DNA of 64,000 nucleotides, taken from positions 29,890-93,889 of the forward strand of contig UQYF01000005.1 of assembly GCA_900545175.1 (NCBI GenBank), given 5' to 3'. The position numbers were made by a program, and so were the translations under genes. The notes under the pieces are model-generated. The model saw nothing but the letters and a program-made list of their open reading frames with translations, was not told where the DNA came from and did not search any database. This stretch comes from an uncultured Eubacteriales bacterium. GTDB taxonomy: Bacteria > Bacillota > Clostridia > Lachnospirales > Lachnospiraceae. The first letter of the stretch is position 1, and every line of letters begins with the position of its first letter. This document shows, one piece after another, positions 1,807 to 59,348 of this stretch.

Positions 1807-2511
1807 ATGGGACATAGTTATGACTGGGCATCCATTCCAAGCTATATTCCAAAGGTCATGAAGGCATTCCCGCTGACAATACAGATACTTCTTCTGTCAT
1901 TGATTTTTTCTTTGATTATCGGAGCGGTGGTTGCGTTAGGAGCGCTCAGTAAGAATAAGGCTGCAAAGGCGGCAGCTAAGGGATGGATATCATTTATGAG
2001 AGGTATTCCTACACTCGTCCTTATATTTTTACTTTATCTTGGTCTTCCGCAGCTTATGAATGCACTTGGTGTAAATATGAGTGGGATAAGCAAGACAACG
2101 TATATTGTTGCATGTCTCTCACTAAGCACATCGGCAAATATGGCAGAGATGATGAGAGCGGCATACCTTTCGGTAAATAAGGGACAGAAGGAAGCAGCAT
2201 ACAGCGTTGGAATGAAGCCTTTAATGGCTTTTAGAAGAATTATTTTTCCTCAGGCATTAGGAGTTGCTATTCCAACACTTGGGAACAATATAATAATGCT
2301 TTTCAAGGAAACATCACTTGCATTTACAATAGGTGTCATAGATATCCTTGGAAAAGCAAGAGCACTTAGCTCTGCAAGCTATGGAACTAACAGGCTTGAG
2401 ATATACATTGCAACAGGCCTTATATTCTGGGCAGTATGTTTTATATTGGAAAAACTCACCAAGTTTGTAGAGAAGGTATATACAAAGGGCAGAAAACAGG
2501 CGACAAGTTAA
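1807..2511 (+). CDS. Amino-acid ABC transporter permease (His/Glu/Gln/Arg/opine family)
   Basis: Multi-TM protein with an EAA-like loop; RBS GAAAGGAG before ATG 1807 (the ORF is also open from 1759). Confidence 0.75.
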   Translation: MGHSYDWASIPSYIPKVMKAFPLTIQILLLSLIFSLIIGAVVALGALSKNKAAKAAAKGWISFMRGIPTLVLIFLLYLGLPQLMNALGVNMSGISKTTYIVACLSLSTSANMAEMMRAAYLSVNKGQKEAAYSVGMKPLMAFRRIIFPQALGVAIPTLGNNIIMLFKETSLAFTIGVIDILGKARALSSASYGTNRLEIYIATGLIFWAVCFILEKLTKFVEKVYTKGRKQATS

Positions 2512-6902: not shown

Positions 6903-8351
6903 ATGGCGGTAAATGAGAGAACTCTGAAGATGGGAAGTGCACCGATATTTCCACTGCTTGTCTCAATGGCTGTACCGGGACTTTTAGGAACACTGACTAC
7001 ATATCTGTACCGTACTGTCGACCAGATATTTGTCGGAAATTTTGTAGGGCGCACTGCACTAGGCGGCATATCGGTGCTTTCACCGTTTAACAATGTTATA
7101 ATTGCACTCTCACTTTTTATCACTGTCGGCGGAACCTCGCTTTTAGCACTTACAATGGGGCGGAAGGATTATGATGAGGCAAACAAGCTGTTTGCCAATA
7201 TAGTGATTCAAGCGATTGCAATGGCACTTATAGTCTCGGTACTTTTCTTTGTATTTGCCAGGCTTTTTGTCGGCGTGTGTGGAGCAAAGAAAGGCACACA
7301 GACTTATGAGTACGCTGTGCTATACTTAAAGATTGTCACATGCGGGCAGGTCTTTAACATGTTAAATCAAGGACTTGCAGCGATAATAAGGACTGAGGGC
7401 GCAGCAAAATATTCGATGTTTGCAAATATTGTAGGTGCTTTTTTTAATATAGTACTCGATGCACTTCTCATAATTGTATTTAAAATGGGAGTTGCAGGTG
7501 CTGCGATAGCAACGATAGTGAGCCAGCTTATGGGAGCAGCGTTCAGTGCAGCATTTTTTTTAACAGGAAAAAGTTCATTAAGATGGGCAGGCTTTGCGGT
7601 GGTTGATGTAAGGCAGATGTTATATATAGCTAAAATGGGTATTGCGCCTTCAATATTTCAGATGTTGTCATTGTTTACCAATATTCTTTTAAATAAATCA
7701 CTTCAGTACTATGGAGATTTAGATCCGGTATATTCATTGATTGGCGGCGGAGAGCTGTGCATATCGGCAGTTGCCATAGTTAACACGGTTGATAGTTTTA
7801 TTGTTTCAATGACATCGGGAATCAATCAGGCTGTATCACCTTTGATAAGTTATAATTATGGTGCTAAGAATTATTCCAGAGTAAGAAAAGCTTCGCTTTG
7901 TTCACAGGCTATGGCAGGAGTGTTTGCGATAGTGATATGGTCGGCTATGATGCTTGCACCTGAATTTGTGTGCAGCCTGTTCGGAAAAGGCGATGAGGCA
8001 CTGATAAGTTATGGTGCGATGGCAATGAGAGCCTGCAAGATGTTCGCACTTTTCGGAGGCTTCCAGATGCTTGTGAGCATGTATTTCAGTTCAATAGGAA
8101 AGCCGCAGGTTGCGACATTTGTATCAATATCAAGGCATGGACTTTTTCTTATTCCGGCGATGCTTATAATACCGCAGTTTATGGGACTTAAAGGTGTCCT
8201 TTATGCTAATTCGGTCTCCGATGGCTGTTCACTTATAGTAGTGTCACTTATGTATTTACATGAGATGAGAAGATTATCTAAGCTTAAGGATGGAGAAGAG
8301 ATACCTTCAAAAAGGTTGATCAATATATCTAAAAAGAGTCTTACAGAATAG
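6903..8351 (+). CDS. MATE-family efflux transporter
   Basis: 12-TM, ~480 aa, internally duplicated architecture typical of MATE proteins. Confidence 0.75.
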   Translation: MAVNERTLKMGSAPIFPLLVSMAVPGLLGTLTTYLYRTVDQIFVGNFVGRTALGGISVLSPFNNVIIALSLFITVGGTSLLALTMGRKDYDEANKLFANIVIQAIAMALIVSVLFFVFARLFVGVCGAKKGTQTYEYAVLYLKIVTCGQVFNMLNQGLAAIIRTEGAAKYSMFANIVGAFFNIVLDALLIIVFKMGVAGAAIATIVSQLMGAAFSAAFFLTGKSSLRWAGFAVVDVRQMLYIAKMGIAPSIFQMLSLFTNILLNKSLQYYGDLDPVYSLIGGGELCISAVAIVNTVDSFIVSMTSGINQAVSPLISYNYGAKNYSRVRKASLCSQAMAGVFAIVIWSAMMLAPEFVCSLFGKGDEALISYGAMAMRACKMFALFGGFQMLVSMYFSSIGKPQVATFVSISRHGLFLIPAMLIIPQFMGLKGVLYANSVSDGCSLIVVSLMYLHEMRRLSKLKDGEEIPSKRLINISKKSLTE

Positions 8352-8363
8352 GGAGGATTAATT

Positions 8364-9446: not shown

Positions 9447-9599
9447 AAATGCTGTGCAGGACTTAAAAATTCAGCTTGACAATTCATATGCGTTTAATTA
9501 TTATTAGTTCATAAAATAAGAGATGCGAAGCATCAATTTTTTATGAGCATGAAGCGAAAGCGGATTGCAGATATCATTGACTATATGAAAAAGCTATGA

Positions 9600-9905
9600 A
9601 GGGAAGAAGTAGATATTTTTAGGAGCCTACAGAGAGCTGCCGGGTGGTGAGAGGCGCACAGGTAACGGAATATTGAATACATCCTAGAGCATTGCACCGA
9701 AAGAAAGATAATTTTTTTAGTAGGCTGTGACGGCAGCACCCGTTATAGTGCAGAGGTATCGATTAAAAGTGTGAAGGATTACTTCTGAAACAGCTTTTGG
9801 TCTGTACTTGGTGAGGCACCGGATGTGAGTTCGGTGTGAAGTAAGGTGGTAACACGTTTATATACGTCCTTACAGTAGTAATCGCTGCTGTAAGGATTTT
9901 TTTAT
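9600..9905 (+). ncRNA. T-box leader riboswitch (likely tyrosine-specific) controlling tyrS
   Basis: Stem-I like region with AGAGAG/GGTGAGAG; candidate specifier loop GAA-UAC-A; T-box-like AAGGTGGTAACACG; terminator TCCTTACAG...CTGTAAGGA plus T7 at about 9868-9905. Confidence 0.55.
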
Positions 9906-32394: not shown

Positions 32395-32435
32395 TGTGTC
32401 TTATACGAAAATCAGAGTAGGCAAGGAGGATTATT

Positions 32436-51226: not shown

Positions 51227-51314
51227 AGTTAAAACAGAATGGTTCCGGATATGCATAAGCTATGCTGTGCACAATATTCCGGGATACATCCGAAGTATGA
51301 TAAGGAGGCAGATT

Positions 51315-52796
51315 ATGAGACAGGTAGGTATGCTTATGCCTGTTGCTTCCCTTCCGGGAAGACATGGTATAGGTGATTTTGGAAAGGAAAGTTATCATTT
51401 TGTTGATTTGCTTAAGGAGGCAAAGGCAGCTATATGGCAGATGCTTCCGTTAAATCCCCTTGGATATGGCAATTCGCCGTATCAGCCATATTCTTCATGT
51501 GCCGGGGATGAGATTTATATAAGTCTTGATAAGCTGTGCGAGGAGGGGCTTTTAAAGAGAGTACCTGATTTTCACGCTAATGCGTCACATATTGACTATC
51601 AGGCTGTCAGGGCTTTTAAGGGAAAGTATCTTAGAAAAGCTTTTGAGAAATTTAAGCCTGATGCTGGGTACAGGAAATTCATAAAAATGGAATGGGTATA
51701 TAATTATGCTGTATTCCTAACATTAAAAAAGCAGAATAATCTTGTGGCATGGAATGAGTGGCCGATTAAGCAGCAGAACTGGATAAAGGATCACGAATAT
51801 GACCTCACACCGCTTAAGGAGGACATCGAGTACGAAATGTTCGTCCAGTATGAATTCTATAAGCAGTGGATGGAGCTTAAAAAATATGCCAACAAAAAAG
51901 GAATAAAGGTTATGGGAGATATTCCGATATATGTTGGAATAGATTCGCTTGATGTGTGGTCAGGTCAGGAGAACTTTCTTCTCGGAGCTGACGGAAAGCC
52001 GACATTTATCGCAGGAGTACCACCTGATTATTTCAGTGCGACAGGTCAAAGATGGGGAAATCCAATATATGACTGGGACTATATGGAAAAAGATGGCTTT
52101 AGGTTCTGGTTAAATAGACTTGATTACAGCAGTAAGCTCTTTGATATCATAAGAATAGACCATTTCAGGGCATTCGACAGCTATTGGAAAATTCCGGCAG
52201 AATGTGAGACTGCGGTTGACGGAGAGTGGAATTACGCTCCGGGTTATAAGCTTTTTGATACTATATTCAAGGAGATGCCGGATATCAATATCATTGTTGA
52301 GGATTTGGGTGATTTAAGACCTGAGGTATTGGAGTTAAGAGACCATTACGGCTTTAAGGGAATGAGAATCGTACAGTTTTGTTTTACAGAAAATGATGTG
52401 GCTGACGGTGAATATACAGATACTCATAATCTTGTTTTGTACACAGGAACACACGACAACGATACGATAAATGGCTGGTATAAGAGCCTTTCAAGAAAAG
52501 AGCAGAACCGGACAAGAAAATTCTTAGACAAAGCGGGAATACCTGATGGCCCGGTTTCATGGAGAATGGTTTCGTTTACTCTTTCACAGGACTGCTATAT
52601 GGCAATACTTCCTTACCAGGATGTATGTGATTTAGGAGCGAAGACAAGGCTTAATCTTCCGGGAACGCTCGGTTCGCCTAACTGGGAGTGGAAAGCGAAG
52701 AAGCTTGATGATTTAGCAGCGAGGACAGAAGCGTTTGCGGCACTTGTAAAGCATCCTGTGAAGCGTCCTTCGCATAAGAATAAAAAGCAGGCATAG
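51315..52796 (+). CDS. malQ: 4-alpha-glucanotransferase (amylomaltase, GH77)
   Basis: GMLMPVASLPG...GIGDFG N-terminus, catalytic-region motifs (RIDHFRAF, WGNP); AGGAGG RBS. Confidence 0.85.
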   Translation: MRQVGMLMPVASLPGRHGIGDFGKESYHFVDLLKEAKAAIWQMLPLNPLGYGNSPYQPYSSCAGDEIYISLDKLCEEGLLKRVPDFHANASHIDYQAVRAFKGKYLRKAFEKFKPDAGYRKFIKMEWVYNYAVFLTLKKQNNLVAWNEWPIKQQNWIKDHEYDLTPLKEDIEYEMFVQYEFYKQWMELKKYANKKGIKVMGDIPIYVGIDSLDVWSGQENFLLGADGKPTFIAGVPPDYFSATGQRWGNPIYDWDYMEKDGFRFWLNRLDYSSKLFDIIRIDHFRAFDSYWKIPAECETAVDGEWNYAPGYKLFDTIFKEMPDINIIVEDLGDLRPEVLELRDHYGFKGMRIVQFCFTENDVADGEYTDTHNLVLYTGTHDNDTINGWYKSLSRKEQNRTRKFLDKAGIPDGPVSWRMVSFTLSQDCYMAILPYQDVCDLGAKTRLNLPGTLGSPNWEWKAKKLDDLAARTEAFAALVKHPVKRPSHKNKKQA

Positions 52797-52885
52797 TATT
52801 ACATAAGAAAAATAGCGCAGATTGTTGTTATGACGTTAAAAGAACCTTCATATACTTTTAGAAGTAAAGTATATGGAGGTTTTTT

Positions 52886-53239
52886 GTGGGCAAAATTATA
52901 CAGGTGTTAAAGATTGCAGCGGCTGCAGTTGTCGTTTCGATAATATTATTGCTGCTCGGAGCTTTTATTTCATATAAGCTGCGGCTGTCGGACGCACAGA
53001 TATCACTCTTTGCGGCTGCGATATATGCAGTGGGAGCGTTCATAGCCGGGTTTGGGACAGGGCGGCTGAAAAAAGAAAAGCGCCTGCTGTGGGGGCTGTG
53101 TGCCGGAGTGTTATACTTTTGTGTTATTCTTCTTGTGTCGATTGTCTCGGGAATGGGACTGCGCTTAGATGCAGGCAGGCTTATAAAATGTGTGATAATC
53201 TGTCTCGCATCAGGAGCTGCTGGTGGAATTATCGGATAG
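52886..53239 (+). CDS. Small hypothetical membrane protein (3 TM)
   Basis: 117 aa, hydrophobic helices, GGxxG-rich. Confidence 0.45.
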   Translation: MGKIIQVLKIAAAAVVVSIILLLLGAFISYKLRLSDAQISLFAAAIYAVGAFIAGFGTGRLKKEKRLLWGLCAGVLYFCVILLVSIVSGMGLRLDAGRLIKCVIICLASGAAGGIIG

Positions 53240-53255
53240 AAAAATAAAAAAACTA

Positions 53256-53284
53256 TTGACAAATTCAATAAGTTAGATTATAAT
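53256..53284 (+). promoter_or_regulatory. Consensus sigma-A promoter TTGACA-N17-TATAAT (orphan; no ORF follows)
   Basis: Exact consensus hexamers and spacing, read directly. Confidence 0.6.
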
Positions 53285-53337
53285 ACATATTGTTAGTGAT
53301 AACTAACCACGTACATAACATACATAATTCTTCTAAA

Positions 53338-53368
53338 AATGGCAGGGAATAGGGCACCCTGCCATTTT
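53338..53368 (+). terminator. Intrinsic terminator about 55 nt downstream of the orphan promoter
   Basis: GGCAGGG-loop-CCCTGCC followed by ATTTT. Confidence 0.6.
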
Positions 53369-53564
53369 GCTGTTAATCAATAGGAATCAGATAATCATCA
53401 ATTAATATATCAATGTATTCACACACAAATAATGCTTGAAAAAAATAAAAAATAAAAAAGGATTTTTTGTTTTGGACAAAGTATATAGAAATAGAGGCTG
53501 TTTTTGGGAAAGGAAATACAGCCGGTATAAATAATCCGCAATATAAGGAGCTTGGAGAAGAAAA

Positions 53565-55382
53565 TTGATCTATTCGGATGATATTATTGAGGAGGTCAGA
53601 GGGCGAAGTGACATTGTAGATGTCATATCGGGGTATGTCAGGCTGACCAGAAAGGGAAGTTCATATTTTGGACTTTGCCCTTTTCATAATGAAAAGTCAC
53701 CTTCATTTTCTGTGTCGGGTTCAAAACAGATGTTTTATTGTTTTGGCTGCGGTGAGGGAGGAAATGTATTTTCATTTATAATGAAATATGAGAATTATAC
53801 TTTTCCGGAAGCAGTGAAGATGTTAGCGGACAGAGCAGGTGTACAGCTTCCGGAAGTCTCAATGTCACCGGAGGAGAGAAAGCAGCAGGATATCAAGTCT
53901 CAGCTCTACGATATCAATAAGGAAGCTGCCATGTTCTATTACAGAATGCTCAAATCTCCCGGTGGTAAGAGAGCATATGAATATTTTAAGGATAAACGTA
54001 TGCTCACGGATGAGACTATAGTGCATTTCGGGTTAGGAGCGTCAGGCACATATAAAGATGAACTGTACCGCTATATGAAAAGTAGAGGCTACAGTGATGA
54101 ACTGCTAAGAGAGACGGGTCTTTTTATTTACAATGAAAAAGAAGTAAGAGACAGGTTCTTTAACAGGGCAATGTTTCCGATTATGAATCAGGCTAATAAA
54201 GTCATAGGCTTCGGCGGGAGAGTCATGGGAGATGGGGAACCTAAATATCTCAATTCTCCGGAGACTAAGATATTTGACAAGAGCAGAAATCTGTTCGGTC
54301 TTAATCTGGCACGAAGCTCAAGAAAGAAGAACATGATAATCTGTGAAGGCTATATGGATGTCATAGCTATGCATCAGGCGGGCTTTGATCAGGCTGTAGC
54401 TTCACTCGGAACAGCTCTTACTACCGGACATGCGTCTCTTATGAAGAGATATACGAATGATGTTTTGGTATGCTATGACAGTGACGGAGCCGGAACTAAG
54501 GCCGCGATAAGAGCTATAGGGATGTTAAGGGGAGCCGGCTTGAGAACTAAAGTCATCGATATGAAGCCATACAAGGATCCTGATGAGTTTATCAAAAATC
54601 TGGGTGCACAGGCATTTCAGGAGAGGATTGACAATGCTAAGAACAGCTTTATGTTCGAGCTGTCAGTGCTTGAAAGAGAGTACGAGCTTGGTGACCCTGA
54701 TGGAAGAACGGCATTTTTAAATGAAGCGGCTAAGAAGTTGGTTGATTTTTCTGATGAAGTAGAGAGAAATAACTATATTGCAACAGTTGCATCTGAATAT
54801 CATATAAGTGTTGACAGCCTCACGAGACTTGTTGGAAAATGGGCGGCACATGAGCTTGCAGCGGGAAAAAGAGATAACAGAAATGATTATAACAGCGCTG
54901 AGAAACAGGCTGCGGCTTTTGGCGGTGAGAACAGGAGCCGTGTAAAGGCATCCGGCGTGTCAGAGAAAGACGACGGAATAAAGAAGGCACAGAGACTGCT
55001 TCTTACATGGCTAATTGAGGAGCCGAAGTTATATGTACCTGTGTCTAAGCATGTGAGACCTGATGATTTTACTGAGGAGTTATACTATAAGGTAGCACTT
55101 ATTTTGTTCGACCAGTTTGAAAAAGGAGAGCTTAATCCCGCAAAAATAATATCGAGCTTTACAGAGGAGGAGAGCCACAGGGAGGTTGCAAGGCTGTTTA
55201 ATACCGAGCTTCCGGGTGACTTAGAAATGCGGGATAAAAATAAGGCGCTTGATGATATCGTGAAAAGGATTGTTACTAACAGCCTTGACATTAAATCAAA
55301 GAATGTGCGTGATATCAGCGAGCTGCAACAGATAAAGCAGAAGCAGAGTGCGGTAAATACATTGCATATTTCATTGAACTAA
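53565..55382 (+). CDS. dnaG: DNA primase
   Basis: Zinc-ribbon CPFHNEKSPSFSVS...CFGCGEGG, TOPRIM domain; TTG start; followed by sigA. Confidence 0.9.
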   Translation: MIYSDDIIEEVRGRSDIVDVISGYVRLTRKGSSYFGLCPFHNEKSPSFSVSGSKQMFYCFGCGEGGNVFSFIMKYENYTFPEAVKMLADRAGVQLPEVSMSPEERKQQDIKSQLYDINKEAAMFYYRMLKSPGGKRAYEYFKDKRMLTDETIVHFGLGASGTYKDELYRYMKSRGYSDELLRETGLFIYNEKEVRDRFFNRAMFPIMNQANKVIGFGGRVMGDGEPKYLNSPETKIFDKSRNLFGLNLARSSRKKNMIICEGYMDVIAMHQAGFDQAVASLGTALTTGHASLMKRYTNDVLVCYDSDGAGTKAAIRAIGMLRGAGLRTKVIDMKPYKDPDEFIKNLGAQAFQERIDNAKNSFMFELSVLEREYELGDPDGRTAFLNEAAKKLVDFSDEVERNNYIATVASEYHISVDSLTRLVGKWAAHELAAGKRDNRNDYNSAEKQAAAFGGENRSRVKASGVSEKDDGIKKAQRLLLTWLIEEPKLYVPVSKHVRPDDFTEELYYKVALILFDQFEKGELNPAKIISSFTEEESHREVARLFNTELPGDLEMRDKNKALDDIVKRIVTNSLDIKSKNVRDISELQQIKQKQSAVNTLHISLN

Positions 55383-55415: not shown

Positions 55416-56528
55416 ATGACCATGGATGAGAACATGTTGAAATTTGATGAAAAATTAAAGGAACTTCTTGCTGCCGCAAAGAAAAAGAAAAACACGCTTG
55501 ATTATCAGGAGATTATGGATGCATTTGCAGAGATAGACCTTGATCCTGATAAGATGGACAAGATTTTTGATTTCCTTGAGGCAAGCAATATCGATATTAT
55601 CCGTACAACGGATGATGATATAGATGATGAGCCGATTCTGCTTGACGATGATGACGATATCGATATAGAGAAGATTGATTTATCTATACCTGAGGGAGTC
55701 AGCATTGAAGACCCTGTCAGAATGTACTTAAAGGAGATTGGTAAAGTGCCGCTTCTTTCTGCCGAGGAGGAGATTGAGCTTGCAAAGAGAATGGAGAATG
55801 GCGACCAGAATGCCAAGAAGAGACTTGCTGAGGCCAACCTTCGTCTTGTTGTAAGTATTGCAAAGAGATATGTAGGAAGGGGCATGCTTTTCCTCGACCT
55901 TATTCAGGAAGGTAATTTAGGTCTTATAAAGGCTGTTGAAAAATTTGATTATCGTAAAGGCTACAAGTTCTCGACATATGCTACATGGTGGATTCGTCAG
56001 GCTATAACAAGAGCTATTGCAGATCAGGCGAGAACAATCAGAATACCGGTTCATATGGTTGAGACGATCAATAAGCTTATTCGCGTGTCAAGACAGCTCT
56101 TACAGGAGCTTGGCAGAGAGCCGTCACCTGAAGAGATAGCAGCAGAGATGGATATGCCTGTTGAGAGAGTAAGAGAGATTTTAAAGATTTCCCAGGAGCC
56201 TGTTTCAATGGAGACACCTATCGGTGAGGAGGAAGACAGCCATCTTGGTGATTTCATTGAGGATGACAATGTTCCGGCTCCTGCTGAGGCAGCAGCATTT
56301 ACGCTTCTTAAGGAACAGCTCGATGAAGTGCTTTCAACACTCACAGACCGTGAGCAGAAGGTATTAAGACTCAGATTCGGTCTTGAGGACGGAAGAGCGA
56401 GAACCCTTGAAGAGGTAGGAAAAGAGTTCAAGGTAACAAGGGAGCGTATCAGACAGATAGAGGCAAAGGCTCTAAGAAAGCTTCGTCACCCAAGCAGAAG
56501 CCGCAAGCTTAAGGACTATCTTGACTAA
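55416..56528 (+). CDS. sigA: RNA polymerase primary sigma factor (sigma-70/SigA)
   Basis: Acidic region 1.1, regions 2-4 ([36 protein letters not shown], region 4 HTH). Confidence 0.9.
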
Positions 56529-58949: not shown

Positions 58950-59320
58950 GTCTACCAGTTGGCTGAATAATCGCGGCTGCATATGTCGAAAGACCGCAGG
59001 TGAGGAAAGTCCGGGCTTCATAGGGCAGGATGCCGGATAACGTCCGGTGGAGGTGACTCTAAGACCAGTGCAACAGAAATATACCGCCACAGGCGTAATG
59101 CCGAGGCTCCGCAAGGACGTGGTAAGGGCGGAAGGGCAGTGTAAGAGACTACCGCCTGTCTGGTAACAGACAGGGCACATGTAAACTCCATCCGAAGCAA
59201 GACCGAATAAGAGACAGTGACGTGGCCCGCCAGTCTCAGGTTGGTCGCTTGAACCTGTTGGCAACAGCAGGTCTAGATAGATGATTATTCACGACATAAC
59301 CCGGCTTACAGGCTGACTGG
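58950..59320 (+). ncRNA. rnpB: RNase P RNA (bacterial type B)
   Basis: GAGGAAAGTCCGGGCTTCATAGGGCAGGATGCCGGATAACGTCCGG (P4 5' strand) ... AGGGCGGAAGGGCAG ... ACATAACCCGGCTTACAGG (P4 3' strand); P1 pairing of CCAGTTGGCTG with CAGGCTGACTGG. Confidence 0.85.
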
Positions 59321-59348
59321 TGGTTATTTACCAATAGGAGATTTTTCG

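Follow-up and report, generated by a model that had tools for sequence, protein, structure and literature searches.

A candidate small RNA gene between DUF3792 and dnaG-sigA that shares the terminator of its upstream neighbour in a clade of human-gut Lachnospiraceae

Results

Organization of the locus

The DNA analysed here is a stretch of 64,000 nucleotides, which in the following is called the window. Upstream of dnaG and sigA, and downstream of malQ and a gene of the DUF3792 family, it holds a short unit that consists of a promoter, a predicted RNA body and a terminator-like hairpin. A sequence-only reading of the same DNA had placed a small RNA of about 80 nt between a small membrane-protein gene and the dnaG-sigA operon, and this placement was borne out, with DUF3792 as the upstream gene and dnaG and sigA downstream. 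The features of the locus are:

51267-52796: malQ, the flanking gene upstream of DUF3792
52886-53239, plus strand: DUF3792 membrane-protein gene (Pfam PF12670, E = 1.6e-26); its 3' UTR holds the whole unit
53256-53284, plus strand: sigma-A-type promoter, with the -35 TTGACA at 53256-53261, a 17-nt spacer and the -10 TATAAT at 53279-53284
53289-53368, plus strand: predicted primary transcript of about 77-80 nt, its start inferred from promoter geometry
53292-53307, plus strand: 5'-terminal hairpin GTTAGT-GATA-ACTAAC, i.e. GTTAG(T)-loop-(A)CTAAC, from fold and comparison
53308-53339, plus strand: unstructured, near-invariant stretch CCA-YR-TACATAACATACATAATTCTTCT followed by an A-run; candidate interaction (seed) region, predicted to be unpaired
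53340-53368, plus strand: intrinsic-terminator-like stem-loop of 8 G+C-rich pairs with the 9-nt loop AATAGGGCA and a tract of 4 U; common to the DUF3792 mRNA
53457-53492, plus strand: promoter-like block of the downstream operon, AAAGGATTT-N12-AAAGTATATAGAAAT; it delimits the sRNA and lies outside it
53565-55382: dnaG, downstream of the unit
55416-56528: sigA, downstream of dnaG

Rfam was searched at E <= 10 over 52700-53700 and at the gathering threshold over the whole window, and neither search found a family for the unit. The best plus-strand Rfam 15 score over the unit was that of STnc220, with 17 bits versus a gathering threshold of 60 (E = 8.5). The literature was searched for DUF3792 and for sRNAs of Lachnospiraceae at the locus, and no report was found. 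The unit appears to match no described RNA family. Elsewhere in the window, a class A RNase P RNA (291 bits, 58955-59324, plus strand) and a T-box leader (110 bits, 9587-9874, plus strand) were the only Rfam families above threshold.

A conserved promoter of the unit

The exact consensus promoter that had been claimed at 53256-53284 is present, and TTGACA-N17-TATAAT is the sole 12/12 sigma-70-type match in the 64-kb window, where 0.03 such matches would be expected from shuffled sequences. The perfect TATAAT is a minority allele: eight of ten strains of the same species carry TATTAT (T at window position 53282), and the -10 of most related species is TATTAT, TACAAT or TATGAT, which corresponds to an 11/12 match overall. 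Among the distinct variants, 23 of 24 retain the -35 TATTGACAAA, a -10 of the form TAnnAT and the 17-nt spacing, and the AGTTAG just 5' of the -10 (53271-53276) is invariant. Spacer positions 1-10 and the DNA on either flank vary freely in the same 24 variants. With hexamers and spacing fixed while the spacer drifts, the unit appears to have its own promoter, maintained by selection. Polymorphism within the species was too low in the ten strains to be informative.

The pentamer GTTAG or its complement is found three times in this region, once in the invariant element before the -10 (53271-53276) and once in each arm of the 5' hairpin (53292-53296 and 53303-53307). The copies are spaced 20 and 11 nt apart and lie roughly on one helix face. 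They may represent an operator for some repressor, or a '-16 region' promoter element. As a repeated operator, GTTAG-N6-CTAAC was rejected, showing no enrichment in the window.

Anatomy and fold of the predicted RNA

Judging from the promoter geometry, the RNA would start between A53289 and G53292, that is 5-8 nt past the -10, and would end in the U-tract at 53365-53368. An 82-nt transcript from 53291 folds into these two hairpins, separated by an unpaired middle part; the folding energy is -24.1 kcal/mol (z = -4.2), and none of 200 shuffled sequences equalled it.

The small hairpin GTTAGT-gata-ACTAAC, also part of the sequence-only reading, is located at 53292-53307. Five of its stem pairs are invariant; the sixth pair and the loop vary (GATA, GACA, AGAA, CAACAA), with energies of -3 to -5.4 kcal/mol across the variants. 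The stem shows no covariation, so that its invariant core pairs count neither toward nor against an RNA structure as opposed to a DNA inverted repeat. In the case of L003 and L088, a U-G wobble occurs inside this hairpin, which would fit an RNA stem and would be mismatched as a DNA palindrome. The position at the extreme 5' end would fit the role of a stabilising stem-loop.

The hairpin is followed by the candidate seed stretch, in which 25 of 27 positions are invariant in nine independently retrieved species. Variation in the seed region is limited to the Y/R at 53310-53311 and to the length of the A-run. As a whole, the only variable parts of the transcript are the loop and sixth pair of the first hairpin, the two positions past CCA, the length of the A-run and two basal pairs of the terminator.

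Coding capacity

The sequence-only reading had seen no start codon or ribosome-binding site after the promoter, and this was correct in part. A TTG at 53290 does open a frame of 20 codons, closing at a TAG in the terminator loop; no Shine-Dalgarno sequence precedes it and the frame is not conserved. This plus-strand micro-ORF, (T/A/C)TG-TTA-GTG..., was rejected on three grounds: the missing Shine-Dalgarno sequence, the third codon positions from 53313 to 53334, all of which are fixed like the rest, and the indels in the A-run that shift the frame (+1 in L010, +2 in L001). Two further candidates were rejected as well. An ATG at 53339 is present in the window only and absent in the relatives. 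A minus-strand ORF that starts in the hairpin loop is 30 aa long in the window and 82 aa long in L003, and neither its start nor its ends are conserved between species. Altogether, the comparison showed no conserved protein-coding frame in the unit.

The shared terminator

The terminator consists of TGGCAGGG-AATAGGGCA-CCCTGCCA at 53340-53364, followed by TTTT at 53365-53368. The hairpin at 53340-53364 escaped a simple terminator scan, as its loop measures 9 nt and the scan accepted no more than 8. The A-run on its 5' side lengthens the helix to 12 pairs, and the energy of -13.8 kcal/mol becomes -17.9 kcal/mol when this A/U extension is included. The 12-pair helix is fully paired in the 14 distinct sequences, without one broken pair, and two basal pairs show compensatory double changes (C-G/U-A and A-U/G-C). 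The terminator loop is invariant inside the clade.

Thus, the intrinsic terminator that had been read to about 53368 holds as to place and structure, with a covarying stem-loop and a U-tract. It holds less well as to strength: there are just 4 U, and a d'Aubenton-Carafa-type score is about 0. On this measure the terminator looks marginal rather than strong, so that read-through from the promoter into dnaG-sigA would be possible, and a large share of the transcripts may continue into these genes.

Relatives carrying the unit and selection

A genome-collection scan with DnaG yielded ten close relatives (79-87% DnaG identity) and 70 remoter Lachnospiraceae. The close relatives are metagenome-assembled genomes (MAGs) named as Lachnospiraceae, 'Eubacterium sp.' or 'Firmicutes bacterium CAG:882'. 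Eight of these related species carry the unit (L001, L003-L008 and L010), and in L002 the copy is cut by the contig end. CAKRJT01, CAUCXT01, DNFT01, UQZF01, FR895355 and CAKRIL01 are among the MAGs of carriers. A metagenome scan with the 21-nt core added 21 human-gut contigs with a complete unit; two other matches, L082 and L083, were discarded as unrelated low-complexity sequences. An 88-nt covariance model scored 110-121 bits in nine species loci and the 21 metagenome contigs, and found no homologue in the 70 more distant Lachnospiraceae dnaG loci. There is no second copy elsewhere in the 64-kb window, and viral contigs do not contain the core 21-mer. As far as these collections reach, the unit seems to be confined to a single genus-level clade of Lachnospiraceae from the human gut.

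The gene order malQ-DUF3792-unit-(dgt)-dnaG-sigA is found in every copy except L087. In this gut contig of 2x coverage (780-900), the gene ahead of the RNA body and dgt encodes a cupin domain and is equipped with a terminator of its own. The -35 region differs as well, with TTGCAT-N16-TATGAT ahead of the same RNA body, and the transcription start would sit 4 nt nearer to the hairpin. Either L087 represents a rearranged strain or its assembly is chimeric.

Conservation and covariation in related genomes had been proposed as a check on the small RNA, and both were found. The unit is 88-95% identical to that of the window, compared to 31-55% at four-fold degenerate sites of dnaG and malQ, which are near saturation, and the helix carries the two compensatory terminator pairs. 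The intergenic DNA flanking the unit is not alignable among the relatives. Approximately 70 of 80 transcript positions are invariant, including the terminator loop. Such conservation goes far past neutral expectation and points to selection on the promoter, the body and the stem. It also exceeds what a simple seed model would need, which could indicate protein binding or another constraint.

Origin in the 3' UTR of DUF3792

The distance from the DUF3792 stop codon to the start of the -35 is 17 nt in the window and approximately 70 nt in L001. The promoter therefore lies in the DUF3792 3' UTR, outside the ORF, in both. Between the stop codon (53239) and 53340 there are no other hairpins.

Insight into the origin of the unit comes from L009 (CAMAKT01), which is the outgroup to the carriers in a neighbour-joining tree of DnaG. 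There, 8 nt past the DUF3792 stop codon, one finds CAGCAGGG-ATTGGGAGAAAA-CCCTGCTG-TTTT. This hairpin, CAGCAGGG..CCCTGCTGTTTT, is homologous to the terminator of the window and differs in its loop; the promoter, the 5' hairpin and the RNA body are absent at the L009 locus. Since L009 has the homologue directly after the DUF3792 stop codon, the hairpin was ancestrally the DUF3792 terminator. The approximately 105 nt of promoter and body that separate stop codon and terminator in the ingroup would thus go back to a single gain, or to a single loss in L009. The loop has another sequence in L009, whereas all ingroup copies agree in it, which suggests that it became part of a constrained RNA. A terminator that serves only the upstream gene, which had been named as an outcome speaking against the small RNA, consequently describes the ancestral state; the hairpin is now common to DUF3792 and the sRNA unit.

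At its other end, the DUF3792 transcript has a 5'-UTR hairpin of 17 pairs (52841-52883, plus strand; CCTTCATATACTT...AAGTATATGGAGG), whose 3' arm contains the Shine-Dalgarno sequence GGAGG. It is conserved in eight species, with two compensatory pairs at the base, and looks like an element that sequesters the ribosome-binding site.

The downstream operon

The block AAAGGATTT-N12-AAAGTATATAGAAAT is conserved in the clade, L009 included. In the window it is homologous to AAAGGAAAT-N11/12-RNNGAATAT, which is found 5' of dgt in many remoter Lachnospiraceae loci that lack the sRNA (L011-L070). This motif resembles the sigma-H (sigH) consensus, and the -10 GAAT of the family-wide sigH-like motif is changed to GTAT in the present clade. 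Because the family-wide block lies 3' of the terminator, the downstream operon has a promoter-like element of its own. Terminator and sigH-like block are separated by anything between about 3 and about 90 nt, and the sequence in between is unalignable. In the stretch from the terminator to dgt/dnaG, L004 and L009 have no sigma-A-type promoter that reaches 9/12, and the window has a single one, a 9/12 match at 53418-53446.

The order dgt-dnaG is ancestral in the family and has been lost, with dgt, in the window and L001. This dGTPase-like HD-domain gene is missing from 53369-53564 of the window and from 2762-3000 of L001, and is present ahead of dnaG in all other relatives and throughout Lachnospiraceae. 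Its absence reflects a lineage-specific deletion from the dgt-dnaG-sigA operon. The metagenome variant L101 has, at about 1790-1960, an additional sequence of approximately 144 nt with a G+C-rich hairpin (CCCATTACCCTTGGGTGATGGG), inserted after the sigH-like block and ahead of dgt.

An antiterminator was looked for and not found: no helix competes with the terminator, which persists in a 280-nt fold. Because of the operon's own promoter-like block, the variable spacing and the lack of an antiterminator, a classical attenuator is disfavoured.

Target searches

Possible targets of the RNA were searched in 64 kb of one genome. In the initiation regions of dgt, dnaG and sigA, pairing was no better than with shuffled seeds, and no conserved complementary target was found among the neighbouring genes. 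The segment AAUUCUUCU can pair via G-U wobble with ribosome-binding sites of the AGGAGGAUUA type, e.g. at 32424-32434 and 8351-8360; this pairing is indistinguishable from chance. The 15-nt perfect complement TTTTAGAAGAATTAT lies at 2229-2243 (plus strand) within a cystine-type ABC permease gene (1807-2511) and was equalled by just 3 of 1000 shuffled seeds. As a target it was rejected, as the site encodes a common FRRII motif and its synonymous positions are not kept in five relatives. Two other candidates were likewise set aside. A 7-nt match, UUCUUCU/AGAAGAA, to the dnaG ribosome-binding site of the window is missing wherever dgt lies in between. The loop of the 5'-UTR hairpin of DUF3792 offers a pairing site in the window alone; the L007/L008/L010 subclade lacks it.

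Discussion

A small RNA as the preferred reading

The existence, anatomy, selection, non-coding status and evolutionary origin of the unit emerge from the comparison of sequences, and on these grounds we consider it very probable that it is a real, selected transcription unit. The proposal of a small RNA of about 80 nt is supported by the selection on unit and promoter, the covariation in the terminator stem, the lack of a conserved frame and the lack of an Rfam match. In detail, a near-consensus sigma-A promoter 17 nt past the DUF3792 stop would drive a non-coding RNA of about 78 nt. The 5'-terminal hairpin would protect its 5' end and be followed by a 27-nt invariant single-stranded stretch, first A/C-rich and then U/C-rich, and the 3' end of the RNA would be formed by the stem-loop at which the DUF3792 mRNA terminates too. 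The unit would have been lodged once, as about 105 nt between the DUF3792 stop and a pre-existing terminator, or lost once in L009.

Regarding mechanism, a trans-acting candidate sRNA that probably works by base-pairing is the likeliest, and we give it about an even chance. Such an RNA would exert its effect in trans, most likely as a base-pairing partner of mRNAs that uses the invariant unpaired stretch, and with the help of G-U wobble AAUUCUUCU could pair with ribosome-binding sites that are rich in purines. What we infer from the features described above is that the unit is transcribed, where the RNA begins, that it acts in trans and that it does so by base-pairing.

Alternative explanations

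The fixed position of the unit makes it necessary to weigh a role in cis. The unit is always co-oriented with and immediately 5' of dgt or dnaG-sigA, and L087 keeps the linkage to dgt though DUF3792 is lost. It could thus be a cis-acting leader or attenuator, with the sigma-A promoter as the vegetative promoter of (dgt)-dnaG-sigA and a leaky terminator that sets, or lets a trans factor tune, the transcription that reaches the operon; the short RNA would then be a by-product or have a second role. In this reading the layout would parallel that of E. coli, with a promoter, rpsU, the terminator T1, dnaG and rpoD. The marginal terminator, with 4 U and a score near 0, agrees with this, as does the scarcity of sigma-A promoters past the terminator (none of at least 9/12 in L004 or L009, just one, of 9/12, in the window), and the invariance at sequence level would suit a factor-binding site. 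We nevertheless regard such a leader as rather unlikely. No such unit precedes the operon in L009 or in about 70 further loci of Lachnospiraceae, which carry the conserved sigH-like block instead, and this block is also present here, 3' of the terminator, at a spacing and with an intervening sequence that are not conserved. Further, there is no alternative antiterminator pairing, the terminator being kept in the 280-nt fold; no cis-regulatory Rfam family was found at E <= 1; and complementarity to the ribosome-binding sites of dgt, dnaG and sigA is not significant. There is also a slim chance that the RNA is a read-out of sigma-A holoenzyme activity that feeds back on dnaG-sigA in a lineage-specific autoregulatory loop, either in cis (by regulated read-through or by occlusion of the sigH-like promoter) or in trans. 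If true, a feedback loop for the housekeeping sigma factor would have evolved through the capture of a neighbouring gene's terminator.

The near-complete invariance of the RNA brings in proteins as partners. Ordinary terminator loops drift, as the loop of L009 illustrates, and the one of the unit does not, so that the RNA could be a protein-binding decoy or sponge, with ACAUAACAUACAUAA / UUCUUCU and the terminator loop as binding sites, that titrates or recruits Hfq or a KH- or S1-domain protein instead of pairing with mRNAs. (AN)n-like motifs have been reported for the distal face of Gram-positive Hfq, and the near-repetitive (AN)n-like pattern AC-AU-AA-c-AU-AC-AU-AA of the RNA recalls them. 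That the 64-kb search gave no conserved mRNA target counts weakly in the same direction. A decoy is improbable all the same, as the RNA has no repeated high-affinity motifs of any defined family, e.g. no GGA loops for CsrA, and occurs as a single copy per genome region examined. In the last reading to be considered, there would be no dedicated RNA function: the promoter would be a chance occurrence or relic, or part of a DNA-level regulatory site, and the hairpin merely the DUF3792 terminator that it ancestrally was. The stem of the 5' hairpin, which never covaries, and GTTAG or its complement at 53272, 53292 and 53303, in roughly helical phase like an operator, are compatible with this. However, more than 60 invariant transcribed positions, set against saturated neutral sites, go beyond one operator; the promoter hexamers are selected; the GTTAG-N6-CTAAC palindrome is not repeated above chance in the 64 kb; and the U-G wobble of L003 and L088 is a mismatch for a DNA palindrome. 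The probability of this reading is therefore very low.

Significance

Almost no regulatory RNAs are known from the abundant, mostly uncultured gut Lachnospiraceae. With promoter, seed and terminator all defined, the locus is a clean candidate under strong selection, and its fixed place ahead of dnaG-sigA makes a tie to replication and transcription capacity possible. As a candidate sRNA it holds no mechanistic surprise so far. It also provides a rare before/after view of the birth of an sRNA gene, with stop codon and terminator in the outgroup versus about 105 nt of promoter and RNA body between the two in the ingroup, where even the terminator loop afterwards became invariant.

Comparison with known systems

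Small RNAs that have their own promoter and share the terminator of an mRNA are known, namely DapZ of Salmonella, MicL of E. coli and ArgX of Lactococcus lactis (PMC9438474). With its 66 nt, ArgX demonstrates that the layout of a 3'-end sRNA with its own promoter exists in Firmicutes (PMC9438474). Like these three, the unit is short, ends at the terminator of the preceding gene, has its own conserved promoter and contains a conserved unpaired region 5' of the terminator hairpin. In contrast to them, its promoter lies 17 nt past the stop codon and not inside the coding sequence. The unit has no sequence similarity to them and is confined to one genus-level clade, with a bare stop codon and terminator in the outgroup.

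With classical intergenic trans-acting sRNAs such as Spot 42 and RoxS/RsaE, the unit has in common a promoter, a Rho-independent terminator and the size class, as well as high conservation across species that are saturated at synonymous sites and a 5' stem-loop followed by an open seed. It differs from them in that C-rich motifs, a hallmark of RsaE/RoxS, are missing and the seed is A/C- and U/C-rich, and in that it matches no Rfam sRNA family.

In the macromolecular-synthesis operon of E. coli, promoters are followed by rpsU, the internal terminator T1, dnaG and rpoD. A strong promoter and a partial terminator directly 5' of dnaG and the gene of the housekeeping sigma factor are found in both organisms. 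Unlike rpsU, the segment ahead of the terminator encodes no protein here, and the genes that follow are preceded by a conserved promoter-like block of their own. Moreover, the present arrangement is a recent, lineage-specific addition and not an ancestral feature of the operon. Altogether, the unit is best described as a genus-specific candidate sRNA gene that appears to share the terminator of its upstream gene, a layout that belongs to an already known class.
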